From NCBI GenBank assembly GCA_051382305.1, contig JBBCAV010000119.1, positions 1 to 17,402 of the forward strand: a stretch of 17,402 bases of DNA, read 5' to 3'. The DNA is from Bdellovibrionota bacterium FG-2. Its GTDB lineage: Bacteria; Bdellovibrionota; UBA1018. Both the position numbers and the translations under genes were made by a program. Each line of letters starts with the position of its first letter. Positions within the stretch are counted from its first letter, which is position 1. Under the pieces are notes generated by a model, which had not been told where the DNA came from, ran no database searches, and saw only the letters and a program-made list of their open reading frames with translations. This document shows positions 989-16,714 of the stretch, piece by piece.

Positions 989-1000
989 CTTCCTAAAAAT

Positions 1001-1819
1001 ATGATGAAACCTAAAACGACACTCAAATCCCCCCATTTTTCGCCCCAAACCCTCAAGTTCCTCGAAAAAGCGGGACGGCAGAAGAGCCCCAAATGGCTCG
1101 ACCACAATCGCTCCGAATACGAAAGTCTTCTCGTCGCACCGCTTAAGCACTTGGCCCAGCATCTCAAATCCACCTTGGGTCGCGAAGCCCCCCTTTATCA
1201 CTTTCCTCAAAAAGGAATCGGCCGAATCAAGCGCCCCTCAAATCGGGTGAAAGAGCGTGGGGGTTCGCTCTATCGCGACTGGATGACCTACTCGGCCTCA
1301 CGCCCGGCGCAGTCTCGGTTTGAGCACAACCCAAATCTCTTTTTCTTGATGAACCCTGAGGACAAAAAAGACAGCGTATTGGTCGCAGGCGGACTCTACA
1401 TGCCGTCCTCACGGCAAGTGAAGGCAATCCGACAGGCGATCGCTGAGAGCCCTTTATTCGTAAAAGAGTTAAAGGCATTGTTTGCTTCGAAGGCCTTTTC
1501 CGCCTGTTTCAAGGGCGGATTCTCAAGCGAAAGAATATCCTCACGGATTCCTAGAGGTTTTGATCCTTCTCATCCTCAAATTGAGTGGATCAAGCTTCAG
1601 GCGTTTTTCGTGTGGAGATCCTATACCCGCAAGGAGTTTATCTCGCCAAAGTTTCCTGCGATCATGGAGCGCGATTGGCGACAGATCTTACGGCTCAATG
1701 CCTTGCTTAAAAAAGCGCTTGGCGGGCCCTCTTCTTTAGAAACGAAAGAGTCCCGCACCAGCGAATTAGCAGATCGCCTGGATGTGCTTAAGCACAAGCT
1801 CAGAGCGCCAGACTTCTAG
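1001..1819 (+). CDS. DUF2461-family (TIGR02453-like) conserved protein
   Basis: FSPQTLKFLE...WLDHNRSEYE...VAGGLYMPSSRQVKAIRQAI...PRGFDPSHPQIEWIKLQAF resembles the family pattern. Start may be ATG 1001 or 1004. Confidence 0.75.
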   Translation: MMKPKTTLKSPHFSPQTLKFLEKAGRQKSPKWLDHNRSEYESLLVAPLKHLAQHLKSTLGREAPLYHFPQKGIGRIKRPSNRVKERGGSLYRDWMTYSASRPAQSRFEHNPNLFFLMNPEDKKDSVLVAGGLYMPSSRQVKAIRQAIAESPLFVKELKALFASKAFSACFKGGFSSERISSRIPRGFDPSHPQIEWIKLQAFFVWRSYTRKEFISPKFPAIMERDWRQILRLNALLKKALGGPSSLETKESRTSELADRLDVLKHKLRAPDF

Positions 1820-2562
1820 AATCCCAGCGTGCCGCCAATACCAGCGGTAACCAGCCACTCTGTGCCATCGGGAAGTTGCTCAACTTCAGCGCGAAGTTCA
1901 GGCCCGAGCGTAAGGAGTGGAAGTGAAATCGCCTTGAAGAAAAGCTTATCCGAAGCAATGATGCCGTTGGCCCAACCACTCACCACGCTTTTGCCGCCTG
2001 AGGTGAGGGCTTGTTCTGGATCGAAATTGAAGCTTGGGGTCGCGTAGTAGGCGACGCGTAGCTCATTTTGAAATCTCCAAACATGCATGTAGAGCGTCCC
2101 GCCTGCGTAGAAGCCGAACATCTTTTGATCTGCCCCTTCCGGACGCTGCCACAACACACCCATGGCGCCAACGCTTGCGCTCAATTTTCCGAGATTCATC
2201 GGCAGTCCAAAAGTCCCACCCAAGCCGAGCGCGGCTCTTTTTTCTTCGCCCTGTGTTCCACCTGTTCGGATATAAATCTCATGAAGTTTTAAGATCAAAA
2301 CACTTGCTGAGCCGCGAATTTCAAAATTTGTTGTGTCTTCTTTGTGGGCTGTAAACTCAGCCTCGGCTTCGACGAGTAACAAATTGAGTTTTCCGCCAAC
2401 GGTTGCGGTGTAGCTTGGGATGACTTGCCACTCCTGGCCGCTGGTATAGGGCGAGTCAAAGCGGGTGTCGACGCTTGCATTGATTTCAATCATGGGATCA
2501 TCACTGGCGAATGCGGTGACGCTGGATACTAACGCTAGAAGGGCAAAAAGACTGAATTTCAT
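1816..2562 (-). CDS. Secreted protein, probable outer-membrane beta-barrel of unknown family
   Basis: ATG at 2562 preceded by AGGAG. Signal peptide MKFSLFALLALVSSVTAFA, alternating amphipathic strands rich in Gly and aromatics, and C-terminal Phe (GIGGTLGF). Stop overlaps the convergent DUF2461 stop (CTAG 1816-1819). Confidence 0.6.
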   Translation of the reverse strand: MKFSLFALLALVSSVTAFASDDPMIEINASVDTRFDSPYTSGQEWQVIPSYTATVGGKLNLLLVEAEAEFTAHKEDTTNFEIRGSASVLILKLHEIYIRTGGTQGEEKRAALGLGGTFGLPMNLGKLSASVGAMGVLWQRPEGADQKMFGFYAGGTLYMHVWRFQNELRVAYYATPSFNFDPEQALTSGGKSVVSGWANGIIASDKLFFKAISLPLLTLGPELRAEVEQLPDGTEWLVTAGIGGTLGF

Positions 2563-2640
2563 AAAAGCTCCTAAGGAATTTAATACCAATTGATCACAGC
2601 TATATATCGCCGCACAGCGTTACGCAAGGGAAAACCGAAT

Positions 2641-2678
2641 AAAAAAAGGGCCCAACTCGATAATTTCGAATTGAGCCC
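2641..2678 (-). terminator. Rho-independent terminator downstream of the clostripain gene
   Basis: Minus strand GGGCTCAATTCGA-AATTA-TCGAGTTGGGCCC forms a 13-bp stem whose two mismatches are G:U pairs only on this strand; followed by T7. Confidence 0.85.
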
Positions 2679-2715
2679 CATTTTCGCCAGTTTGGCGGTT
2701 TTCAATCGTTAGTAT

Positions 2716-3951
2716 TCAGTTAACAGGGTTGTCTTGGAACAAGAATTTCAAGGCATCTCCCCATTTTGTGCCACTTGAAAACTGCAGCGTCGAATAGCGT
2801 TTTGAGTAAGTGCTGTACTCGTACTTGGAGCTTGGGAGCCAGATGGAAACCCCTGAGGCACGCTTGTAGCCCGTGCTTACGCTGTTCGTCGTTACAAAGC
2901 TGCTCATCGCCGACTCTATCCCTGCAAGTGACGTTGGCTCAATCGACTTAACGTCCGACTTCTTAAGAATGCTCACGAAGTCCATCAGATCGCCGTAATC
3001 ACCATAGGTAAAGTCCTGTGTGGTGCTTGCCGCTGAAATCACTTTGGTTCTCTCTGCTGAGTTAAGTTTTTGAATATCTGTTGCAAAGAGGGTGATGGCA
3101 TTATTTAAGCCTGCCAAATGAGCCATATTGTAGACTGAGAAAGTTACATCTTGGAATCCGTTTGCTCCACCTTGGTAGGACTTGAAATACTCCTCAGAGA
3201 GGTATTTTCCAACTTCGCCAGGGCCCGCTTTTGGATTTCTTGCCCATTGTTGCAAGAAAGTGTCGTAGGGCCAGCCAGCTGCTGCCTCGGTTTCTTGCGA
3301 ACCTGCGAAGAAGTCGACAGAATTCCCCATTTCAGTTGCGACTTCAACCATGGCCATCAAGCAGGCATCGCTGCCGTAGAGATCAACGTTGTGACCGATG
3401 ATCTTTGCAGATTCTGCCATGGCTTGTCCCAACTGGACCGTCGTCATAAAGTGACCGGTGAGATCGTCCCAGCTGATGTCGTTGGTGTGAATTCCTCCTG
3501 CGGCTCTTTGATTTTGCAGATGCCAACCACCACCGTGGTCCCACACGTTAATGAAGTAGTGTTTAGCGGGGTAATTTTCAACGCCCCATCGAACAAATTC
3601 CACAAGGTTCCGATAATCTCCCATGTCGACACTGCCCATGCTTTGAACAATGGGGGAGGTGACCAGGTTCATGTTGTTATCTTTTTGTACGTAGAGGCGG
3701 TTAACCTTCTTTTTCGCAAGGCTCGCCCATTGGACGACAATGTTGAGGTCATCAGATGAGCCGACCTTTTCCATTTGATTCATGTTGAGGGTGCCGTAGG
3801 AATCAAGATTATTGTTCCCATTCAAGAAGACTAGAAACGTCCACTCTTTTTGCTGTTTGGGGGCGGACGCATCATCGGCACGCGAGATCCCGGTTAAAAT
3901 GAGCGGAAGAAAAAGACACGACGACAAGATCAGTTTCATTATTTTGCGCAT
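2716..3951 (-). CDS. Secreted clostripain-family (peptidase C11) cysteine protease
   Basis: Signal peptide, then EWTFLVFLNGNNNL, D-M-G-D...LVEFVRWGVENYPAKHY, catalytic WDHGGGW and SDACLMA, SQETE...GWPY and C-terminal GVSIWLP. GGAGGAG RBS before ATG 3951. Confidence 0.92.
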   Translation of the reverse strand: MRKIMKLILSSCLFLPLILTGISRADDASAPKQQKEWTFLVFLNGNNNLDSYGTLNMNQMEKVGSSDDLNIVVQWASLAKKKVNRLYVQKDNNMNLVTSPIVQSMGSVDMGDYRNLVEFVRWGVENYPAKHYFINVWDHGGGWHLQNQRAAGGIHTNDISWDDLTGHFMTTVQLGQAMAESAKIIGHNVDLYGSDACLMAMVEVATEMGNSVDFFAGSQETEAAAGWPYDTFLQQWARNPKAGPGEVGKYLSEEYFKSYQGGANGFQDVTFSVYNMAHLAGLNNAITLFATDIQKLNSAERTKVISAASTTQDFTYGDYGDLMDFVSILKKSDVKSIEPTSLAGIESAMSSFVTTNSVSTGYKRASGVSIWLPSSKYEYSTYSKRYSTLQFSSGTKWGDALKFLFQDNPVN

Positions 3952-4046
3952 GCGGCTCCTCCATGAGTGGCGCTACTTTTTAACGAAACCGAAAATACCA
4001 ACCATGGTGTATTCGGCATCGTCTTGGTACTTCTGATTTATAATAA

Positions 4047-4074
4047 ATCGTATCACGAAACTTGGCGCTAGCAA
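4047..4074 (-). promoter_or_regulatory. Candidate sigma70 promoter for the clostripain gene
   Basis: Minus strand TTGCTA-N16-TACGAT with an extended -10 TG, in an AT-rich intergenic region about 95 nt upstream of the start. Confidence 0.35.
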
Positions 4075-4172
4075 CCGCTCCTTCAATGAACAGGTAAAAA
4101 AAACATGAAAAAATGAAAGGCTCAAGAATGGAGTCGTGTAAATATTTCACGAATCGTCTTGTTTTTGGCGCC

Positions 4173-5297
4173 CTATTCAACTTGGTTAGGCAGAATCGTT
4201 CCGATGCAGTGATCGCATTGATTGCAGGGCCTGAAATGGTGAGCGCGAAAAAGCTTTGAAAGAGCCTCTTTTCGACAGCCGGTAGTTTTGAAAAAACGTA
4301 GGACGTTTTGGAGATCTTCTCTTTTTTCTGCGGAATTGGCGGTGATCCACTCATTGTTTTCAAAATCCTGATCGTCCCAAAAAACGAGAGCGCTTCCAAA
4401 CTCCGAGCGTCCCACGCGCCCAATGGCTTGTGCGAGGGCAAGGAGGGAAGCGGGGGCTTGCCAAACCAAGCACCACCGAAGATGGGGGATGTCCATTCCC
4501 ATTCCGAAGGCGGAGGTTGCGACGACCAGATTAAAGTCTCCCCGGCTGATTATGTGCTCGAGGTTTAGGCGCTCCTCCTTTGAGAGCCCTGCGTGGTAGT
4601 GAAGCGATCTTTTTCCCGCGGCTTGAAGCCCTCGGCATAGGTTTTCGGCAAATCGTCGTGTCTGAACAAAGATGATGCCGCACCCTTGTTGAGCCCCTAT
4701 CCACTCTAGAGCAAGCTCGGTTCGATCGAGCCACGGCACTTTTGCAATGCTGAGTCCGAGTTTCTCGGGGAGTGCAAAATCGCCTATTTTTATGAGGTCG
4801 CGTCCCACGAGGTTTTCTAATTGCGCGATGCCTGGAGTGGGAAGGGTGGCGGTAAGCCAAAGGCTTGTTGGAATTTTGAACTTCTCGATTAAAAAAGGAA
4901 TTTCCAAAAATGCAGGTCTGAAGCTTTGTCCCCATTCCCAGAGACAATGACATTCGTCCACGGCGAGAAAGTTGGGATTCCACAGACGTAAGCGCTCTTG
5001 GGTCGCGGGAAGCGTGAGCGATTCAGGAGAAAGAATCCAAACGTCAGGTGTTGAATTATATTTTGTTCCATTTAGCGGCCCATTTTGAACTTTCAGTCCG
5101 CTGGCCCCCAATTTATCCGCGTGCTGTCTCGACAGTGCAATAAGAGGAGAAATGAGTAAGGTCCGAGTGCCCGCGCACCGCGCGCGGCGTTCAATGATAA
5201 GACTTTTTCCAGAGCCCGTTGGAGCGATTGCAAGAATGTGTCCGGGGTTTTGAAGTAAAGCGAGGGCCTGTTTTTGAAAGGGACGAAGTTCAAGCAC
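4173..5297 (-). CDS. Short RecQ-family DEAD/DEAH-box helicase (helicase core plus Zn-binding subdomain, no winged-helix or HRDC)
   Basis: LRPFQ, APTGSGKS, SPLIAL, SPE, VDECHCLWEWGQSFRP, LTAT, YHAGL, ATSAFGMGMD, QAIGRVGR, then CRK...CNQCDHC 9 aa before the stop. GTG start. Confidence 0.88.
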   Translation of the reverse strand: MLELRPFQKQALALLQNPGHILAIAPTGSGKSLIIERRARCAGTRTLLISPLIALSRQHADKLGASGLKVQNGPLNGTKYNSTPDVWILSPESLTLPATQERLRLWNPNFLAVDECHCLWEWGQSFRPAFLEIPFLIEKFKIPTSLWLTATLPTPGIAQLENLVGRDLIKIGDFALPEKLGLSIAKVPWLDRTELALEWIGAQQGCGIIFVQTRRFAENLCRGLQAAGKRSLHYHAGLSKEERLNLEHIISRGDFNLVVATSAFGMGMDIPHLRWCLVWQAPASLLALAQAIGRVGRSEFGSALVFWDDQDFENNEWITANSAEKREDLQNVLRFFKTTGCRKEALSKLFRAHHFRPCNQCDHCIGTILPNQVE

Positions 5298-5340
5298 CCC
5301 CGGCTCTCAGCTAAAACCGTGCCGGCTTCCCGTATCAGGA

Positions 5341-6357
5341 CTAAGGGCTTTGGGCGGACTGTGAGAGATCAAGCTGTGGCGATTTGGCTTTGAATTGAAG
5401 GTAGATCAGGCCTCCAAGTGCGCCAAAAGTCATGTTTGCCAGCGCAAAAAGAGTAAATACGTCTGCTCCGCGTTGAGAGCCAATGAGGCCAAAAAGAGCG
5501 GTGTAGGCGAGATGTCCAGTTCCGATTCCGGCTGGAGCGACCGGAATTGCGACTATAAGGAGGCCTAGCGGAAACACCACATACACTGAGAGTAAGCTTA
5601 GATTGGTGTCCCCAAGGGCCTCGGCAAAGGTCAGAAACACCCAGCCGACAATAAGGTGAATAACAACTGACAAGAGGAGTGTCGTGACCACGGCCAAACG
5701 ATGATTGTGGAAGGCGCGAAGCCCTTCGTAGATGCGGGCAAAAGAGCCAAGTTTGGAAACTTTGGCTTCGGCAAAACGCAATAATCGAAGTACTGGATCG
5801 TGATGCTCTCTCACCAAGAAAAGGTAGGCAAAAAAACCGACAACACAAAGCGCTGCAATCACGACAAAGAGATGAATCGCAGAGTACAGGGAGGTTCCAT
5901 AGAAACTCTTCAGCCCCAGGGTGAGTGCGCCGGCAGAGAGTAGGACAAGGGCGGAAAGGCCCGCCACACGATCAAAAAGGATGGTGCCAAAGGCCCAGGC
6001 GCGTTTTCCTTTGATTTCGTTTCCTAAATAAAATGCTTTCACAAAATCACCACTGACGGCACCAGGCAGGGCTATATTGAAGAAGTTTCCAATGAGCGCG
6101 ATTTGAAAAACCTTACCCCAGGTGACCTGCATGTTTTGCGCGCGAAGCAAAATCTGCCAGCGGGTCACACCAAAGACGAGGGTCAAAGCGAGTCCAAGCA
6201 TTGCTGGGAGCATCTTGTCCCACCGGGCAAAAGCCTCGCCCGTGTGTTGCATGGAAATAAAGCCATTCTTTGCTAGGAAATAAAGGAGGCCGCCAACGAG
6301 CGCAAGCTTGAGGAGGAGTTTGATCTTGGATTTGTAGGATTTCGGCTTTTTTTCCAT
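5341..6357 (-). CDS. Lysylphosphatidylglycerol synthase TM-domain (UPF0104/flippase-like) membrane protein
   Basis: Multiple TM helices with RWQILL, IGNFFNIALPGAVSGDFVKAFYL, TILFDRVAGL and IPVAPAGIG motifs. Confidence 0.88.
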   Translation of the reverse strand: MEKKPKSYKSKIKLLLKLALVGGLLYFLAKNGFISMQHTGEAFARWDKMLPAMLGLALTLVFGVTRWQILLRAQNMQVTWGKVFQIALIGNFFNIALPGAVSGDFVKAFYLGNEIKGKRAWAFGTILFDRVAGLSALVLLSAGALTLGLKSFYGTSLYSAIHLFVVIAALCVVGFFAYLFLVREHHDPVLRLLRFAEAKVSKLGSFARIYEGLRAFHNHRLAVVTTLLLSVVIHLIVGWVFLTFAEALGDTNLSLLSVYVVFPLGLLIVAIPVAPAGIGTGHLAYTALFGLIGSQRGADVFTLFALANMTFGALGGLIYLQFKAKSPQLDLSQSAQSP

Positions 6358-9205: not shown

Positions 9206-9442
9206 GTTTTTTCAACGACCCACCCTCGGCTGTCTATTGATCACGGTCCAATAATAGGACGAAACGTTTGAAAACCAAACCAAGCAGCTCTCTTCATGAG
9301 TGACCTTCGGTTAATGCTATACCCAAAGCCCACCTCATGCTCATCTCAAGTAGTAGTAGTGATATTCGCTAGAAGAAACAAAACCTTGGCTAAGATGACG
9401 AAAATCCAGGTTTTTGTAGGCAGAAGGAAGTTTTGTCAGGAC

Positions 9443-10534
9443 TTATGCGGCCTGTTTGACCGAGACAAATGACTCATCGGTTGCTTCCTGATTTGCTTGA
9501 ATTTGGATTGGACTCGGGCCGTCTTTGTAGAGCCAGTTCTCTATCTGCTGTTTGTAGTCGGCCAAGAATTCATTCGATGTTCTCCATCCCAGAGCTTTAC
9601 GTCTGCGCTTGTCATTCCTCCACTCACAGTGCTGTGAGAGGATCTTATTGAATGCCTCAAGACTCAGTGGTTTGATTCGATGGAAGAGCTCTTCATCGTC
9701 TTGCCGGTGGGATCTTTCGACCAAGCCTTGCAGTTCTTTTTCGCCCGGCGGGATCAGTACGTGGCGAATGCCGCTGCTCTCGCACAGTTGATCCAGAGCG
9801 TGCTTTTTAGGGTTATCCGCGTGTGAGACATACTTATTTGTGAACTCAATGCCATTGTCACTTTGAAGCCTGTATATCGTGAATGAGGCTGCTGCGATCA
9901 CAGCCATGATGAAGTCCTTCGTTTCACTCGGACCGTATGAATCATAGGCCTTTTTGAATGACCATCGTGAGGCGTGATCGACAAAATTATACACGTAACA
10001 CTTCTGTGCCTGAGGCAGGAGATGAGGCAAATGTTTTACATCCGTTTGGGTATGAGTTCCAGGTTGTTCAACGCGAACCACTCGCGTGTGCTTCTTCTTG
10101 ATCTTGCACGTTTTACGCACAAGCAGGCCCTTTTTCCTTAGGTATCGATTGATTTTGTATTGACTGATGTCAGTGTCACAGTCGTGTTTGAGATGGGCCT
10201 GAATGACCTCTGCTCCCCAATTGTAGAGCTTACGCCATTCTCGGATTCTCTTTGCTGTGTGGCCACGTATCACCGTTGCAGGGCGACCCGATGACTTATT
10301 CGGGATCAGCGCTTCGACCCCCCTTGACCGGTAGGCAGCTTCCCATCGATACAACGTGCGTCCCGTCGTACCCTGCCTCACCGCAATTCGCTCTCGATCT
10401 TGCTCCGTCGCAGGACCCCATGACTGACTGTGTTTAACGAGCTCAATCAGAGTCAAAAGTCTGACAACAACTCGCGGGTTTTCTTTTTGAAATCGCTTCA
10501 CTTCTTGACGCAAAACACTTAGCTTAAGATCCAT
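9443..10534 (-). CDS. IS481-family DDE transposase (HTH plus integrase core)
   Basis: TLYRWEAAYRSRGVEALIPNKSSGRP HTH, WGAEVI, PGTHTQTDVK, VDHASR, LQSDNGIEF, QGLVERSHR and RRRKALGWRT. CAGGAG RBS before ATG 10534 (MDLKLSV). Confidence 0.9.
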   Translation of the reverse strand: MDLKLSVLRQEVKRFQKENPRVVVRLLTLIELVKHSQSWGPATEQDRERIAVRQGTTGRTLYRWEAAYRSRGVEALIPNKSSGRPATVIRGHTAKRIREWRKLYNWGAEVIQAHLKHDCDTDISQYKINRYLRKKGLLVRKTCKIKKKHTRVVRVEQPGTHTQTDVKHLPHLLPQAQKCYVYNFVDHASRWSFKKAYDSYGPSETKDFIMAVIAAASFTIYRLQSDNGIEFTNKYVSHADNPKKHALDQLCESSGIRHVLIPPGEKELQGLVERSHRQDDEELFHRIKPLSLEAFNKILSQHCEWRNDKRRRKALGWRTSNEFLADYKQQIENWLYKDGPSPIQIQANQEATDESFVSVKQAA

Positions 10535-10605
10535 TTCAAGCTCCTGTTTTCTATGAGGGTTTAGTTGTATCAAACAAAACATCTCAGTGAATCAGGAGCT
10601 TGAAA
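10534..10605 (-). promoter_or_regulatory. Long hairpin sequestering the transposase Shine-Dalgarno and start
   Basis: Perfect 13-bp IR TTTCAAGCTCCTG (10534-10546) / CAGGAGCTTGAAA (10593-10605), with further imperfect inner pairing. On the transcript the 3' arm contains the SD and the A of the ATG. Confidence 0.75.
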
Positions 10606-10690
10606 ACCTTTATTTCAGGGTTTTTCGAGCTTTTTACCACTCTTTCTCTGACAAAACTTCCTTCTGCGAAGACTTATCTTGTAAATCCTG

Positions 10691-10719
10691 CTAAAGTCCT
10701 GCATTCCGACCGCCGATAA
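10691..10719 (+). promoter_or_regulatory. Sigma28 (FliA/SigD) promoter
   Basis: CTAAAG at 10691-10696 (TAAA 10692-10695), 16-nt spacer, GCCGATAA at 10712-10719. Matches TAAA-N15/16-GCCGATAA and lies 10 nt upstream of ATG 10730. Confidence 0.8.
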
Positions 10720-10729
10720 GCCTCTAGGT

Positions 10730-12406
10730 ATGGGAAAACTCATCTTTCACGTCGATGATTCGTCCACGGCTACGCGTATGGCGGGCAATGTCTTTAAACA
10801 GCTTGAGCCGGATTGCGAGTTCAAGGGGTTTCTCTCGGGCGCAGAGCTTACCGCTGCGCTTGAGGTGGCGCCGGAGCTGCCGTGGATTATTTTTTCGGAT
10901 GTGAATATGCCCGGCATGAATGGCTGGGATGTTTTATCTTGGATCAAACGGCATCCCAAGTTTCACGTCATCCCAGTGGTCATGCTCACGGCAGAAGTGA
11001 GTGATGAGGATCGCGTCAGAGGACTGAAAGACGGTGCTTTTGAGTATTTGGGAAAACCTGCGACGGCTGCCCTTCTGCAATCGGCTCTCAAAAAGCGCGA
11101 AGAGCTGGGGATTGAATATTCGGCCTTGTTTCCCATTGATCAGGATTATGCCGAAGAAGGTTTGGATTTGATTTCGGAGTGCCATCGCTTCGTGGATCAA
11201 CTTGATGAAGCGGGAGTTAAAGAAATCTATCGCGCGTTTCACACCGTAAAGGGAGGTGCGAACTCACTTCAGTTTCCTGCGCTGGGTGCCTTTATGCATC
11301 ATGCGGAAGGGCTCCTAACGGCGATTCGAAACGGCAACCTTTTTGCCCTGCCGCAAACCAAGGAGCTTCTCTTTGTGATTTTCTCCTACGTCGAAGAACA
11401 GTGCGAGAAGATCAAGGCGAAAGTGCTTCTCGAGATGCCGCCCCAAAAACTTTTTGATGATATTACTTTGGTGAAATCAAATGTCGCGGCCGGCTGGAAT
11501 ATGGCGGGAGCAAGTGCCGTGCCGGTGGCAGCGGGAGCGCCCGAGGGCTCTCCTGATATCGCTAAAGTGAACAAGTCTGCCGAAGGGGGCGATCTTCCTG
11601 GAGGCGTGATCAGCCGTTCTTCAAGCAGCACGCGCTTGTCCAATGAAAAGCTTAATGAGATTCAGCTCAAATTTAAAAAAATAATGACCCACAAAGTGCG
11701 ACTCAGTTCTTTTGCGAACAAGCTCAAGGGCGAATTTTTTGATGAAGAGTTTCCCAATGACCTTTTGAAAATTGTGGAGGGACTTAATAACGACGCCATG
11801 GAAGTCATGGATTTTTTTATTTCGTTGCGGGTCGTGCCAGCCTCCCGACTTAAAATATTTTCTGAGCGGGTGGTGAGTCAGACGAGTGATCAATTAGGGA
11901 AACCTGCACGACTGGAGTTTAGAAGCGATGAAGGACTTGAGATCGATCAGGCGGTCGTGGAGTGCATGGAAGCGGGGCTTTTGCATCTTCTTCGTAACTC
12001 CGTGGACCATGGCCTTGAGGTGCTGGAGAAGAGAACCGCGGCCGGGAAGGATCCGGTCGGGTTAATCAAACTCAGCATTGAACGAAGCGGTGACGAGAAT
12101 GTCCTAGCGACGATTATCGATGACGGGGGCGGAATCAACGCTGAAGGACTTAAAGCGGCGGTCGCGAAAAAGAGTTTGATTGCCAAAGAAGTGTTGGAAA
12201 AACTCAAAGAAAAAGAAATCTACGAGCTCGTGTTTATTGATGGACTGTCTACCCGCGAAGAGGTTTCGGATGTCTCCGGCCGGGGCGTGGGACTGGGGGC
12301 CGTGAAGCAGAAGATCGTGGATATGGGTGGAAAAGTCGAAGTGGATTCGACGCTGGGTAAAGGCACGGTGTTCAATATTACATTACCGAGGATCTTCAGA
12401 TTATGA
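10730..12406 (+). CDS. Atypical CheA-like histidine kinase: REC - Hpt(P1) - short linker - divergent dimerisation (P3) - HATPase (P4), no CheW-like P5
   Basis: REC with VDDS, D57 (SDVNMPG), MLTAE and GKP; Hpt YRAFHTVKGGA (H171); N-box LLHLLRNSVDHGLE, DDGGGIN, VFIDGLST, DVSGRGVGL. The protein ends at GKGTVFNITLPRIFRL*, where P5 would start. Confidence 0.9.
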   Translation: MGKLIFHVDDSSTATRMAGNVFKQLEPDCEFKGFLSGAELTAALEVAPELPWIIFSDVNMPGMNGWDVLSWIKRHPKFHVIPVVMLTAEVSDEDRVRGLKDGAFEYLGKPATAALLQSALKKREELGIEYSALFPIDQDYAEEGLDLISECHRFVDQLDEAGVKEIYRAFHTVKGGANSLQFPALGAFMHHAEGLLTAIRNGNLFALPQTKELLFVIFSYVEEQCEKIKAKVLLEMPPQKLFDDITLVKSNVAAGWNMAGASAVPVAAGAPEGSPDIAKVNKSAEGGDLPGGVISRSSSSTRLSNEKLNEIQLKFKKIMTHKVRLSSFANKLKGEFFDEEFPNDLLKIVEGLNNDAMEVMDFFISLRVVPASRLKIFSERVVSQTSDQLGKPARLEFRSDEGLEIDQAVVECMEAGLLHLLRNSVDHGLEVLEKRTAAGKDPVGLIKLSIERSGDENVLATIIDDGGGINAEGLKAAVAKKSLIAKEVLEKLKEKEIYELVFIDGLSTREEVSDVSGRGVGLGAVKQKIVDMGGKVEVDSTLGKGTVFNITLPRIFRL

Positions 12407-12416
12407 GGCAAAGACT

Positions 12417-12833
12417 ATGAGCCAAAAAAGAATCTTAGTGGTGGATGATTCGGGGAGTCTGAGGCGAATCATCAAGAACTACCTTGAACAAGGGTTTCCG
12501 GAGGCGATTTTTTATTCCGCGGAAAACGGAGACCTGGCAGAACGGCTCATTCAAGAGCAAGCCGTTTATGGCGAGCCGATTGATGTTGTCATCTTGGATT
12601 GGATGATGCCGGATGTGTCGGGATATGAGTTTCTGAAGCGCATTCGAAGTGTCGCCGCTTTTTCGAAGCTGCCCAAAGTCATCATGTTGACGGCGGAAAC
12701 GGATCCGACCCAGGTCGAGGCCTGTTTGAAGTACAACATCGAAGCGTATCTCACGAAGCCGTTTTCGCAGCAGCAAATTATTGATGCCGTAAAGCATGTT
12801 CTAGCTGGAGAGGAGATGAAAAATGCCGTTTGA
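12417..12833 (+). CDS. Single-domain response regulator (CheY-like)
   Basis: ATG 12417 after GAGG. RILVVDDS, ILDWMMP, MLTAE and YLTKPF present; 138 aa. Confidence 0.9.
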   Translation: MSQKRILVVDDSGSLRRIIKNYLEQGFPEAIFYSAENGDLAERLIQEQAVYGEPIDVVILDWMMPDVSGYEFLKRIRSVAAFSKLPKVIMLTAETDPTQVEACLKYNIEAYLTKPFSQQQIIDAVKHVLAGEEMKNAV

Positions 12834-13752
12834 AGTAACCACGCAAACTGACTATCTCGTAGTGACCCTGAAGGGCGATTGTAATGGTGACGGAGCCGAT
12901 AAACTCGCGCCGGCCGCCGACAAGCAGCTCTTGGCCGGAGCGCTGAAGTACATCGTCGTTCAGTGTAGTGAATGCGGCGATATCGATCCGACCTTCATGC
13001 GGGTGCTGGCCATGCTTTACAAAAGGGGTAAGGAGCTGAACGGCAAGCTGTGCTTGGTACACGCAAATGATCGAATTCAGGAGGCCATTAAGCGCTCCGG
13101 CTTGGATCGAATCCTGCCGTGTAAGATGAGCTTAAGAGGCGCGCTCGTGGAGTTTGGTTTGGTGAAGGCTAAAGAGTTCGATGTGAACTTCATCAATCCT
13201 TTTTTGGCAGCGACGCAAAAAGTGCTTAAAGTCCAGTGTTTCTTGGAAACCACTGCGCAAAAACCGTTTATCAAGAAGCCCACCGATCCGCCACTTTTTG
13301 GGGATATCAGCGGGATTATTGGTCTGACCGCGGAGACTTTTAATGGGACGCTGGCGATTAGTTTTCCTGGGCCGCTGTTCTTGGTGCTTGCGAGTAATAT
13401 GTTTGGTCAGCCCTACAAAGAGATCACAAATGAGATCGTCGATTTGGCGGGCGAGCTTTCGAACATGATTCTCGGACAGGCGAAGATGGTGCTCAATCCT
13501 TTGGGGTATCAGATTCAGCAGGCGATTCCTTCGTGCGTGTGGGGGAAGGATCACAAAATCAAGCACTTTGGCGGCGGCGCGTGCGTCGTGATGCCATTTG
13601 AAACGAAGGCCGGAGTTTTTCACGTCGAAGTGATCAGTAACTCTGGAGTGCAAGAAAAGAAGCCAATGGCTGTGCCACCGGCTTCGGGCGGACCGGCTGC
13701 TCCGGCAGCACCCGCTGCGCCTGCGACTCCTTCTTCGGGAAAGGCTGCGTAG
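12823..13752 (+). CDS. cheX: STAS domain - CheX phosphatase fusion with a Pro/Ala-rich tail
   Basis: aa 1-113 are STAS-like (VVTLKGD...IDPTFMRVLAMLYK...GKLCL...IKRSGLDRIL). aa ~119-272 are CheX (FDVNFINPF, DISGIIGLT, GTLAISF, GELSNMILG with E-x-x-N, AIPS, PFET). GGAG RBS; overlaps the upstream gene by 11 nt. Confidence 0.85.
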   Translation: MPFEVTTQTDYLVVTLKGDCNGDGADKLAPAADKQLLAGALKYIVVQCSECGDIDPTFMRVLAMLYKRGKELNGKLCLVHANDRIQEAIKRSGLDRILPCKMSLRGALVEFGLVKAKEFDVNFINPFLAATQKVLKVQCFLETTAQKPFIKKPTDPPLFGDISGIIGLTAETFNGTLAISFPGPLFLVLASNMFGQPYKEITNEIVDLAGELSNMILGQAKMVLNPLGYQIQQAIPSCVWGKDHKIKHFGGGACVVMPFETKAGVFHVEVISNSGVQEKKPMAVPPASGGPAAPAAPAAPATPSSGKAA

Positions 13753-13754
13753 TT

Positions 13755-14156
13755 ATGTTGGAAACATCCTCGCGGATTTTGGTGGTTGACGATTCGTTAT
13801 CTCTGCGAAAAATCATGGCAGTCATGATTCGCGGGGGCGGATATCAAGATGTGATTGAAGCGGCAAACGGCGAAAAAGCTTGGGAGGTGCTCACGCAATC
13901 CGAAAAGCCGGTGAGTCTCATCGTTTGTGATTGGATGATGCCAGTATGCACGGGCTTGGATTTTTTGAAAAAGCTTCGTGCGGACCCGCGGTTTCAGAGT
14001 GTGCCGTTTTTCATGCTGACCGCCGAGGCGGACGATGAGCGAAAGGTTGAAGCGTTGGCGGCCGGTGCGACGGATTATCTCATGAAGCCATTTACGGCTC
14101 AGGTGTTGCGTGAAAAAGTGGCAGGGCTTTCCGCGCAGAGCGCGCAGGCGGCTTAG
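13755..14156 (+). CDS. cheY: CheY-like single-domain response regulator, close to canonical motor-binding CheY
   Basis: RILVVDDS, DVIEAANG, VCDWMMP, GLDFLKKLRAD, MLTAEA and AGATDYLMKPFTAQVLREK parallel enteric CheY. Starts 2 nt after the STAS-CheX stop. Confidence 0.85.
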   Translation: MLETSSRILVVDDSLSLRKIMAVMIRGGGYQDVIEAANGEKAWEVLTQSEKPVSLIVCDWMMPVCTGLDFLKKLRADPRFQSVPFFMLTAEADDERKVEALAAGATDYLMKPFTAQVLREKVAGLSAQSAQAA

Positions 14157-14215: not shown

Positions 14216-15382
14216 ATGGTCGGAAGAATTATAAGTCCTCTTAATAATAAGAGTTTTTTCCTATTTGGGGTCCGCGGATCCGGCAAAACAACCTATTTGG
14301 AACGTAAATTCGCGCCTGAACAGGCGCTGTTTATCGATCTGCTTAATCCCGAGGTGTTAGAGGAATTTGTTTTTGATATTGCCCGTTTCAACGCAATCAT
14401 TACGCAATCAGAGAATGCGAAGAAGATTGTTGTTGTCGATGAAATCCAAAAGCTCCCTGCTCTTTTGGATTGGGTTCAAATTCATATTCAGAAAGGCAAG
14501 CGAGTATTTGTACTTACGGGGTCGAGTGCTCGAAGACTGAAGCAAGTCGGGAGTAATCTATTGGCGGGTCGCGCTCTTGTGTATTCGCTTTTTCCATTCT
14601 CAACTTTTGAGCTCGGTGAGAAGTTTGATTTGGATATGGCGCTTAATTGGGGGAGTTTGCCCGACGCCTATTGTGCTGAATCAAGGGAGCACGCCAAGGC
14701 GTATCTTAGTGCTTATGTTATTATGTATCTCGAAAAAGAAATTCAACAAGAGCAGTGGGTGCGCAAAATTGAACCTTTCCGGCGTTTTCTGAGGATCGCC
14801 GCCCAGATGAATGGGAAAATAATCAATTATTCTGCTATTGCAAAAGATGTCGGTGTCGATGACTCCACTGTGAAGGGGTATTTCGAAATTCTCGAGGACA
14901 CCCTTTTGGGGTTCATGCTCCCTTCCTACGACAAGTCGGTGCGAAAATCTCAAAGGGTTGCCCCTAAGTTTTACTTTGTAGATCCTGGGATCAAAAGAGC
15001 GATCGAAAAAATGTTAGCCTTTCCGCTGGCTCCCCAAACAGGGGCCTATGGCGAAGCTTTTGAACACTGGATTTTTCTTGAGCTGACCAAGTTGATTGCC
15101 TATTGTCAGACCGACTGGTCTCTGAGTTATTGTCGGTCCCGTGATGATGTAGAAATTGATTTTATTATTGAGCGCCCTAATCAGCCTACGATCCAGATCG
15201 AAGTGAAATCAAAGTTTAAAGTTTCTGCGGCTGATGCGAAGGCCCTCGAGACTCTTGGAAAAGATCTGGACCCCAAAGCGACTCGATATTTGTTATCGCA
15301 GGATCCGCTGGCGCAGGAGTTGGGCTCTACGCATGCTCGGCTGTGGATACAGGGGTTGAGGGATATCTTCGGCGTGAAGTAG
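14216..15382 (+). CDS. AAA+ ATPase of the AAA_14/DUF4143 type (ATPase - HTH - PD-(D/E)xK-like C-terminus)
   Basis: Walker A GVRGSGKT, Walker B VVVDEIQK, LTGSSAR, LAGRA, WGSLP, HTH INYSAIAKDVGVDDSTVKGYFEIL, PKFYFVDPG, GEAFEH and EIDFII...IEVKS. Confidence 0.92.
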   Translation: MVGRIISPLNNKSFFLFGVRGSGKTTYLERKFAPEQALFIDLLNPEVLEEFVFDIARFNAIITQSENAKKIVVVDEIQKLPALLDWVQIHIQKGKRVFVLTGSSARRLKQVGSNLLAGRALVYSLFPFSTFELGEKFDLDMALNWGSLPDAYCAESREHAKAYLSAYVIMYLEKEIQQEQWVRKIEPFRRFLRIAAQMNGKIINYSAIAKDVGVDDSTVKGYFEILEDTLLGFMLPSYDKSVRKSQRVAPKFYFVDPGIKRAIEKMLAFPLAPQTGAYGEAFEHWIFLELTKLIAYCQTDWSLSYCRSRDDVEIDFIIERPNQPTIQIEVKSKFKVSAADAKALETLGKDLDPKATRYLLSQDPLAQELGSTHARLWIQGLRDIFGVK

Positions 15383-15429: not shown

Positions 15430-16714
15430 TTAAAGGTGTCTTGTGTCGGAGAGTAGATCCTGCGCCCGCTGAAGCGCCAGTGCCGGATCGTCACCAAATC
15501 GCCTGGACAGAAGTTCAATCACTTCTTCGGCAGCAAATACACGCCCTGATTGTCGCCCCGTTCGCTCACGTACAATTTTCCGCGAACGAAGTTGCTCGCT
15601 TGCGCGACTTGCAGCGGGAGGGCTGACGGCGAGCTCTTGGCTCAATTGCTTGGCGGTAAAGATAGGGTTTGACAGTAACCAGGTGAGAGCCCGTGCCGAA
15701 GCAGAATTCTCTCGGAACGTTCCCCTTTTGAGCCAGAGGGCAGGGAGTTTCTCAATCCAGCTCTTGGTTTGTTCGGCTTCGCGGTTTGATGCAAAAAGTG
15801 CATCTGCGATGAGCATCGACGATGGGCCCATAATTGAGTTTCTTTTGAGCTTGTTGAAGGGCCCGAACGTACTCTCTTTTTTCTGCTTCGATGTATCCGG
15901 AGAGATAGATCGGGAGTTTTCCTGAGCAAGCCATTTGCAGTGCCAAAAGCATTCTGCCTACGCGGCCATTACCATCTGGAAATGGGTGAATGGCTTCAAA
16001 ATGGGAATGTCCTAGCGCCATTCGGACGGCAAGGGGTAAGCCCATGCCTGCATCCCCGAGTTCAATCGTTTCCAGGTCCGACATCCAATTCATAAAATCT
16101 TTAAGGCAGCGATGGACGTGTTTTGCGGGTGTAGGGTTATAGATAGAGTCTTCAGGTCTGCCAAGGGGCCCTATCCAGACAACGCTCCCTGGTTTGTTTG
16201 GTTCGCGCAGGTTTCCCGGGCGTCCTTTATAGTCGGGGTCTTTACTCATGACCGCTTTATGTAGCCGACAGACGAGATCTGCTGTAAAGATCGTGGCCCC
16301 TTTTTTCAGTGCCGGGAGGAATTCATGCTCTAGTGCCGTGGCATACCCTAATACAGACGCACGTCCCGACTTGCTCTCGTTTTGGTCGTAAACTTCTGCT
16401 GGAGTAAGAATGTGATCTATTGTTGAAAAAGTGCGTTCCATGCGAGAAGACTCGACTGCCTCGCGTCGGACATAGAGGGACGAAACAAGCTTATCCATTG
16501 TGGTGGCGAGGGCGGCAGTCGGTAGCTGTTCAATGAGTCGATTGGCTTTTGCAAGTGCCTGAGTCGGAAGTCCCTTTGGGCGTGTCTTGGGTACCGGAGG
16601 CGGGACCACAAACCACATATTCTTGTAGGTGGGGTCATCAACCTTCTCGACTCCGCAGGGCAGATCGGCAGTATATTTGCGTTTTAGCGTGGGGTGTAGG
16701 TCGTCGCGAGTCAT
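15430..16714 (-). pseudogene. Fic-family protein with C-terminal HTH, split by one frameshift near 15814 (true pseudogene or sequencing indel)
   Basis: EAVESSRME, HSHFEAIHPFPDGNGRVGRMLL and YVRALQQAQ in ORF 15752-16714. The reading ...YGPIVD continues as LIADALFAS...PIFTAKQLSQELAVSPPAASRA...ERTGRQSGRVFAAEEVI in the frame ending at 15430. Removing 1 nt gives a 427-aa ORF. Confidence 0.85.

Follow-up and report, generated by a model that had tools for sequence, protein, structure and literature searches.

The locus described here lies in Bdellovibrionota bacterium FG-2, on a 17,402-nucleotide stretch of contig JBBCAV010000119.1 (hereafter the window, meaning the whole stretch of DNA that was analysed). 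It centres on the gene of a CheA-type kinase that has neither a P2 domain nor the CheW-like P5 domain, followed by genes for a CheY-like response regulator, a STAS-CheX fusion protein and a second single-domain receiver. The kinase (P0001, 558 aa) is encoded by the sole long open reading frame (ORF) at positions 10730..12406 of the forward strand, and it was characterised through Pfam, through alignments with its homologues, and through an AlphaFold2 model that was built on 16 relatives and reached a mean predicted local distance difference test (pLDDT) score of 80.8. Pfam recognises Response_reg at residues 5-120 (E 3.4e-17), Hpt at 146-208 (E 4.4e-6) and HATPase_c at 417-553 (E 1.5e-14), and at E<=0.01 gives no match to a P2/CheY-binding domain, to H-kinase_dim or to CheW (PF01584).

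The first domain is a receiver (REC; residues 1-126, 10730..11107, forward strand), supported by PF00072 (E 3.4e-17), by the strands and helices that the model places at 4-126 within a receiver fold, and by matches to CheY structures at E ~1e-18. Its acceptor set is complete, with D9, D10, D57, T87 and K109, and D57 is encoded by gat at 10898-10900. In the model a gap of just three residues leads from helix 5 of the receiver to the first helix of the P1/Hpt bundle (residues 130-253, 11117..11488, forward strand), which was identified by PF01627 and by alignment to the P1 domain of E. coli CheA, and whose phospho-acceptor H171 is encoded by cac at 11240-11242. The original prediction, made from the letters of the DNA, had placed REC before Hpt with no P2 and had P1 and P3 joined by about 45 Ala/Gly/Pro-rich residues, and the order of the Pfam matches and the model agree with it on each point: a flexible linker of that composition (residues 254-298, 11489..11623, forward strand) stands in the place of P2, and its predicted disorder at 260-288 (pLDDT <50) separates the Hpt bundle from a two-helix hairpin (305-335 and 340-364). 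The hairpin forms the body of a divergent P3 dimerisation segment (residues 299-366, 11624..11827, forward strand), which carries the motif EFFDEEFP (335-342) at its tip and was delimited by the model helices, by alignment to E. coli P3 and by Foldseek; Pfam (PF02895, E<=0.01) overlooks this P3 because it is so divergent. The last domain is a P4, the CheA-type ATP-binding domain (residues 367-553, 11828..12388, forward strand; 368-553 in the model), which was assigned by PF02518 and by its similarity to T. maritima CheA P4 structures, with template modelling (TM) scores of 0.80-0.89.

The protein then ends as ...ITLPRIFRL, with the stop codon at 12404-12406, five residues past the last strand of P4. 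The tail RIFRL and its stop codon (12389..12406, forward strand) are conserved and sit where the linker between P4 and P5 would be. The ATG of the downstream receiver gene follows at 12417, 10 nt beyond the kinase stop, so that a remnant of P5 has no space; the early stop and the immediate start of the next gene had both been noticed beforehand, and both hold.

Judging from sequence profiles and the predicted fold, P1, P3 and P4 of this kinase are homologous to their counterparts in CheA. The alignment of a family profile with E. coli CheA (6s1k_A; E 2.8e-67) falls into two segments, P1 and an unbroken P3-P4; the latter spans residues 243-507 of 6s1k_A and thus ends at the border of P4 and P5. 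According to the accessible part of a preprint (10.1101/2021.08.17.456688), residue 507 of E. coli CheA belongs to the L4 linker. The top Foldseek matches of the model were CheA P3P4 and P4 structures, the TM scores given above applying to P4 alone. The features that define a CheA are thus present as far as the end of P4: a P1/Hpt domain with a phospho-accepting histidine, a P3 hairpin in front of P4, and a P4 with four boxes that we take to be those named N, G1, F and G2, their residues being found in 48-51 of 51 full-length family members. The earlier description of P3 as present but divergent and of the P4 motifs as intact was therefore accurate, the model hairpin, the E. coli alignment and the conservation all speaking for it. 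The C-terminal CheW-like P5 is missing, both here and in all 55 sequences of the family. The two curated CheA models of NCBI score 190 and 152 bits on the kinase against cut-offs of 950 and 793, and with scores so far under these cut-offs the kinase is covered by no curated family.

Relatives with the same end were found in two large searches. A word-indexed search of 5.8 billion proteins returned 15 relatives beyond the query, of 513-568 aa and 34-89% identity, all of them free of CheW; lower down, the same listing held one 395-aa REC-Hpt protein and then, from P0023 on, PF01584 in every listed protein. The C-terminal pattern P-R/I-x-F-x-L is common to all 16 aligned proteins of this group (34-89% identity, query included). 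Among the best 150 matches of a profile search of 1.84 billion representatives, about 41 were full-length P5-less forms of 520-600 aa, the remainder being giant multi-Hpt ChpA-like proteins that scored via many stretches. Pooling the proteins that end no more than 18 residues after P4 gave 58, of which 55 are distinct (513-600 aa) and share the build of the kinase; one 4,858-aa outlier was left aside. Among P5-bearing proteins, even the closest matches have an identity of only 28-36% in their best local alignments. Close homologues that extend into a CheW domain, which the original prediction had named as its refutation, were looked for and none was found among these matches.

A maximum-likelihood tree of the P3-P4 region (quick search, LG+G4, unrooted) set the 55 P5-less sequences against an equal number of P5-bearing ones, namely a random draw of 45 out of 88 that do not exceed 1000 aa, eight from 46 longer ones, and both forms with an N-terminal receiver. 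The P5-less sequences make up one side of a branch with a Shimodaira-Hasegawa-like approximate likelihood ratio (SH-aLRT) support of 99. The tree is compatible with a single loss of P5, given a comparison set that was picked by similarity to the query and was not balanced over the CheA classes. Together with the CheW-free close homologues, this one clade bears out the view that the loss of P5 evolved and is no product of a frameshift. Through the named relatives among the matches listed ("Bdellovibrionota bacterium FG-1" and "uncultured Oligoflexia bacterium") the family can be placed in Bdellovibrionota; a related-locus scan of genome contigs contained at least two true orthologues among 80 listed loci, which gives no basis for confining the family to one phylum.

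The constraint on the core is strong. Among the 51 full-length members, H171 is present in 50, while N423, H427, G428, D464, G466, G468 and F502 of P4 are found in every one and the SGRGVG stretch of P4 in 48-50. The receiver active site is looser, with D57 in 44 of the 51 (E in four, other residues in three), D10 in 38, K109 in 42 and T or S at 87 in 41; H79 of the receiver is present in 50, so the domain is retained even where it is not phosphorylatable. The P3-tip motif, in the form EFx[DE]ExFP, occurs in 41 of the 55 P5-less sequences and in none of 136 P5-bearing ones, and the tail residues F556 and L558 are kept in 35 and 39 of the 51. In the accessible part of the preprint cited above (10.1101/2021.08.17.456688), CheA without P5 is described as remaining active, and substitutions in the P4-P5 linker as raising or lowering basal autophosphorylation, even in a P5-less variant.

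Two unusual proteins stand near this family. In genome G230 (locus L112, G230:C4:5000-12500), an ORF at 3334-4755 on the reverse strand encodes a divergent relative of 473 aa (24% identity, hhalign probability 99.9), which has kept Hpt, the EF..E.FP motif and P4 and has no receiver and no P5; about 100 residues of unrecognised kind form its N-terminus, and its gene adjoins REC and STAS-CheX genes. The protein P0141 of the representative library has 33 matched stretches over its 4,858 aa and, at its end, a CheA-type P4 followed by a six-residue tail with no P5; a giant multi-Hpt/REC kinase and a mis-assembly are both possible.

That the kinase itself might be a truncated or decaying CheA, or an artefact of assembly, was also considered, an insertion sequence (IS) lying directly upstream of the gene in a fragmented metagenome-assembled genome (MAG). 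This explanation can be ruled out, its probability being practically nil: 55 distinct sequences from many assemblies have the same end point, the purifying conservation is strong, the partner genes and a promoter-like element are conserved as well, and the IS lies outside both the gene and that element.

In the literature, P5 is treated as part of what a CheA is. According to the accessible part of a census of CheA proteins (PMC10782961), the core domains are Hpt, H-kinase_dim, HATPase_c and CheW, and the CheW domain is present in 100% of 13,673 CheAs. As far as that text goes, its set was gathered via MiST or, for archaea, via the CheW domain itself, which kept P5-less forms out. The same text (PMC10782961, in part) mentions N-terminal receivers of CheA in "several cases", in keeping with the original prediction that a receiver in this position is unusual, and reports both sink and regulatory roles for CheA-fused receivers, that of a sink being the common one. 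Neither a P5-less CheA nor a CheW-free CheA with an N-terminal REC was described in the literature covered, which did not extend to tables S2 and S3 of PMC10782961, where N-terminal-REC architectures might be listed. The family of P5-less CheA-type kinases is apparently undescribed in print so far.

With canonical class II CheAs of the P1-P5 type (E. coli 6s1k and 8c5v, T. maritima 1b3q and 4xiv) the kinase shares the histidine of P1, the P3 hairpin and the P4 boxes; it differs from them in lacking P2 and P5, in its N-terminal receiver, in a divergent P3 with a tip motif of its own, and in having no receptor, CheW, CheR or CheB genes nearby. A receiver in front was found in just two of the 212 P5-bearing CheAs of the comparison set, namely P0024 (878 aa) and a protein of genome G197 (729 aa). 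Both have the same REC-Hpt-P3-P4 order as the kinase, but they keep H-kinase_dim and CheW, have neither the EFx[DE]ExFP motif nor the partner genes described below, are 29-32% identical, and fall outside the P5-less clade in the unrooted tree. The G197 protein (locus L110, G197:C78, ORF 994-3183, reverse strand) has the order REC-Hpt-H-kinase_dim-HATPase_c-CheW and comes from the family-level group of the window's genome; it is possible that it pictures the ancestral state, though the unrooted tree sets it apart from the P5-less clade. Hybrids of CheA and CheY, such as H. pylori CheAY2, M. xanthus FrzE and P. aeruginosa ChpA, also have a receiver fused to CheA, but there it lies C-terminal to P5 and the kinase is receptor-coupled. 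The kinase of the window does not belong with them, its receiver (5-120) preceding Hpt.

Behind the kinase lie three further genes on the forward strand. The gene at 12417..12833 encodes a single-domain CheY-like response regulator (P0006, 138 aa; PF00072, E 4.1e-24), the presumed phosphoryl acceptor. It is overlapped by 11 nt by the gene of a STAS-CheX fusion (P0002, 309 aa; 12823..13752; PF01740, E 4.2e-11, and PF13690, E 2.6e-18), the presumed CheY-P phosphatase. A second single-domain receiver (P0003, 133 aa; 13755..14156; PF00072, E 1.9e-26), a lineage-specific extra, begins 2 nt past the STAS-CheX stop. Conservation of this arrangement was followed in a phylum sample of 401 genomes, the window's own included. 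Kinase matches at E<=1e-50 were found in 15 of them, and one of these (G197) is the P5-bearing form already mentioned, which leaves 14 genomes with the P5-less kinase. The order kinase, REC, STAS-CheX is contiguous in 12 of the 14, often with overlapping stop and start codons, and in a further one (G242) the cassette genes lie on contig ends, so that adjacency cannot be judged. Of the loci examined, those in G263 and G347 alone have a counterpart of the second receiver behind STAS-CheX, and beyond the cassette genes no neighbour is conserved between the window and the related loci L001 and L002.

The STAS-CheX protein resembles the CheX/CheC/FliY phosphatases in that its C-terminal half matches Pfam CheX, but it differs from them by the STAS domain fused to its N-terminus. 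Its 12 orthologues are 51-87% identical, a stronger conservation than that of the kinase, and D207-x3-E211-x2-N214-x21-P236 is invariant in all 12; these residues resemble what we take to be the active-site motif of CheC/CheX, D/S-x3-E-x2-N-x22-P, with a spacing of 21 residues between N214 and P236. The structure model is good for the STAS half (pLDDT 81-90) and poor for the CheX half (<50). A complex prediction for the full kinase with STAS-CheX residues 1-280 gave a score of 0.00 and a mark of 0.32, which says nothing either way. Four cysteines (C51, C139, C238 and C254) are also invariant in the 12 orthologues, and the interdomain stretch at ~101-131 is almost so; this pattern could reflect metal binding, redox activity or a surface for docking. 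The STAS half was compared with SpoIIAA/RsbV-type proteins as well. At the position that we presume to align with the phosphorylated serine of the anti-sigma antagonists, the 12 orthologues have D, G, S, N or T, the NCBIfam similarity to anti-sigma factor antagonists stays below the cut-off (42 vs 53.45 bits), and no RsbW/SpoIIAB-type kinase or sigma factor gene lies near, so the domain was not assigned to that type.

In the word-indexed search the STAS-CheX protein had 86 close relatives and no distant ones, and all five of the organism names given were of the Bdellovibrionota type. At orthologue level (E<=1e-90) it was found in 16 genomes of the phylum sample, three of which (G230, G290 and G371) had no kinase match at E<=1e-50; in G371 the STAS-CheX locus is interrupted by a contig end. 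Weaker matches at E<=1e-20 occur in 215 of the 401 genomes, many of them in the CheX half only, and weaker full-length paralogues are common across the sample. In one such case (L120, G284:C27:36000-43500), a STAS-CheX paralogue closes a cluster of an Hpt-HATPase_c-CheW kinase, a PAS protein, an unknown ORF, a CheY-like REC and a 471-aa HD_5 protein, and at L116, L117, L118 and L121 a REC gene lies ~1.4 kb upstream of the STAS-CheX paralogue. Since the fusion is widespread and also accompanies a P5-bearing CheA, it is a habit of the phylum and not a mark specific to the cassette. A literature search on STAS-CheX fusions, the results of which were crowded by unrelated uses of these words, found no paper on them. 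Other arrangements of CheX occur in the window's own genome, which encodes a 301-aa REC-CheX fusion (L119, G000:C280, ORF 4814-5719, forward strand) and at least two stand-alone CheX genes (on contigs C45 and C305).

Upstream of the kinase, at 10692..10718 on the forward strand and 38 nt before the start codon, lies a promoter-like element of the FliA (sigma-28)/attack-phase type, TAAAG-N16-CCGATA. In the accessible part of a study of B. bacteriovorus (PMC3627812), the attack-phase consensus TTAAG-N16-CCGATA was derived from 92 of 140 promoters and was assigned to FliA; the element in the window differs from it by one mismatch. Alignment with the upstream region of the congener G263 revealed the element as a conserved block right before the kinase start codon. 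When the 100 nt upstream of the 14 orthologous kinase genes were scanned for the published consensus and compared with 86,322 windows of 100 nt from the window's own genome, the exact consensus with N16 was found in 2 of 14 upstream regions vs 5 background windows, up to one mismatch with N16 in 5 of 14 vs 88, and up to one mismatch with N15-17 in 7 of 14 vs 211, counts that are not to be taken as independent trials, several of the 14 genomes being close kin. All of the upstream matches fall at -34 to -43. A relaxed pattern of our own, present in 9 of the 14 upstream regions, had been set after viewing the sequences, and the scan with the published consensus was relied on instead. The genome has a FliA orthologue (FliA_WhiG, 264.9 bits vs a cut-off of 189.6). 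What lies upstream of the kinase is thus a well-placed consensus match, and control of the kinase by FliA is putative. The E. coli-type pattern TAAA-N15/16-GCCGATA occurs only ten times in the same genome, mostly with no clear gene behind it. A FliA-like motif was also seen ahead of a 902-aa ORF with a C-terminal ADP-ribosyltransferase domain (G000:C177:20813-23518).

The IS mentioned above lies on the reverse strand at 9420..10667, with an rve transposase at 9443-10582, an HTH_32 domain and perfect 20-nt terminal inverted repeats. Its right end is 24 nt upstream of the promoter-like element, which it leaves intact, and 62 nt from the start codon of the kinase. Contig ends of the same genome carry at least five other partial copies, with 99-100% identity and exactly the same borders, so the IS is probably active and probably one reason for the breaks in the assembly.

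The MAG from which the window comes comprises 433 contigs and 4.34 Mb, at 85% completeness. Two CheAs with CheW-like domains are encoded there as well: the gene of one adjoins CheW and CheY genes, and the other is a large protein with three CheW matches. With two ordinary CheAs and CheW genes present, the P5-less kinase is an addition and not a replacement. No gene for a methyl-accepting chemotaxis protein (MCP), CheW, CheR or CheB was found in the 17.4-kb window or in the 6-kb flanks of L001 and L002, and chemoreceptor, CheW, CheR or CheB genes lie elsewhere in the genome. The other genes around the cassette include several of a mobile or defence-like character, namely a PemK/MazF-type toxin gene (638-988), an AAA_14/DUF4143 ATPase gene (14216-15382) and a Fic/DOC gene (15752-16714) that overlaps a small HTH_13 ORF (15430-15831, reverse strand); a gene of the clostripain family (peptidase C11) lies at 2716-3951.

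The reading that we favour, and consider likely, is that the kinase is a functional, soluble, evolved CheA derivative which operates outside receptor arrays, with a CheY-like output of its own, a reset by STAS-CheX and a FliA-type promoter. By analogy with the mechanism of CheA, two kinase subunits would pair through P3, and the P4 of one subunit would phosphorylate His171. The co-transcribed CheY-like protein (12417-12833) would be the next to receive the phosphoryl group, perhaps along with the second receiver (13755-14156) in this genus, and STAS-CheX (12823-13752) would strip it off again. As P5 is absent, the output of the kinase could not be set by CheW-coupled receptors, and its control must arise within the cassette. 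By our leading guess, the receiver at the N-terminus, where it has kept D57 as in this protein, would take a phosphoryl group from His171 or from another kinase and thereby gate or drain the kinase. The phosphatase arm would respond to a signal through the STAS domain. The FliA-type promoter would render the cassette active in the motile, attack-phase-like state, most likely with an effect on motility behaviour. The receiver and the STAS domain are thus candidates for the input, with the P3-tip motif and the tail as candidate alternative control surfaces. A bolder form of this reading, to which we give little credence, joins these parts into a receptor-free attack-phase node, in which H171 would be loaded both by P4 with ATP and, via the receiver, by other kinases, a phosphatase whose STAS domain detects a ligand or a partner would set a private CheY output, and the P3 tip and the tail would replace P5.

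Several observations weigh against the favoured reading or against parts of it. Dimerisation through P3 rests on the model, Pfam giving no H-kinase_dim match. In genome G021, the kinase gene has no REC or STAS-CheX gene within 1.5 kb and lies beside a convergent PAS-HisKA-HATPase kinase gene; conversely, REC and STAS-CheX in G290 adjoin an unrelated ORF of 259 aa with no kinase beside them. The relaxed promoter pattern has 24 sites with an ORF behind them in the window's genome, 20 of which were scanned, the kinase itself and three short doubtful ORFs being omitted; these 20 include one PilZ protein and no recognisable flagellar or chemotaxis gene. The strict pattern is absent from the 250 nt upstream of six flagellin genes, one of which (C392) has by eye a TTAAG...CCGATG-like element. 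In B. bacteriovorus, according to the accessible part of PMC3627812, FliA also drives many non-flagellar attack-phase genes, which makes the missing flagellar regulon less damaging, yet lends no support. Lastly, the original prediction had phosphorylation of D57 replace receptor control. The exclusion of coupling through P5 and the complete acceptor set of this kinase are in its favour, but given the degenerate receivers of the family (D57 in 44 of 51) and the receiver-less relative in G230, phospho-D57 cannot be a universal control. The conserved CheY-like and STAS-CheX partners and the FliA-type promoter, which the original prediction did not include, offer further candidates for points of control.

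The other role that had been proposed for D57 was that of a phosphate sink, in which the N-terminal receiver would merely drain His171 and provide no input. The predicted three-residue break between REC and Hpt and the full acceptor set, here and in most relatives, would suit a sink, and in the available text of PMC10782961 this is the common role reported for CheA receivers; there, however, it is argued for genomes in which phosphatases are absent (811 of the 871 concerned lacked them), whereas here a CheX lies in the same operon. The domain is moreover retained where D57 is replaced by E, I or F, and H79 is kept (50/51), both of which point to a role beyond accepting phosphate, and a pure sink is accordingly a weakened and rather doubtful explanation. 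The order of REC followed by Hpt is also that used in phosphorelays, so the kinase could be a relay node in which an unlinked sensor kinase phosphorylates D57 and the group is relayed through H171 to the CheY-like protein, P4 being a second, ATP-driven entry. The arrangement in G021, where a sensor kinase gene stands where the usual partners are missing, and the many other kinases and receivers of the window's genome would fit such a relay, but no conserved sensor kinase accompanies the cassette in the window, L001 or L002. The strong constraint on P4 argues that ATP-driven autophosphorylation has clearly been kept, while D57 has been lost in 7 of 51 members, and we regard a relay as unlikely.

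Two further explanations deal with the kinase's partners. If the P3 tip or the tail were to bind the receptor tip or free CheW, the kinase might still respond to receptors by a route other than P5; both elements are conserved, family-specific and look like binding surfaces, and CheW genes do exist elsewhere in the genome. The lack of MCP, CheW, CheR and CheB genes in the window and in the flanks of L001 and L002 speaks against it, and the rings of P5 and CheW that build the arrays are impossible without P5, to go by the accessible part of the preprint (10.1101/2021.08.17.456688), which leaves this route improbable. The presence of a STAS domain in the operon, with its sub-cut-off similarity to anti-sigma antagonists, also raises the idea of partner switching, the HATPase domain acting on STAS as a serine kinase like RsbW or SpoIIAB. 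This is very improbable indeed: P4 is of the CheA type by sequence and by fold, H171 is nearly invariant, the presumed serine site is variable, and no sigma or anti-sigma gene lies nearby.

The favoured reading, of a CheA derivative at work outside receptor arrays, has consequences for how the family is found and what it can teach. Searches for CheA that proceed via the CheW-like P5 domain are blind to P5-less kinases, and a P5-less clade with constrained P1, P3 and P4 shows that the catalytic core of CheA is reusable outside receptor arrays. The kinase is a natural minimal CheA in which it can be asked how P4 is set without receptors, and what a receiver and a STAS-phosphatase add. If the bolder form were true, the receptor-free node would amount to a pathway derived from chemotaxis whose computation needs neither chemoreceptors nor CheW nor methylation. 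For Bdellovibrionota, the cassette appears to be part of a FliA-driven, motile, prey-seeking programme, and may bear on the steering of these predators or on their switching between behaviours.

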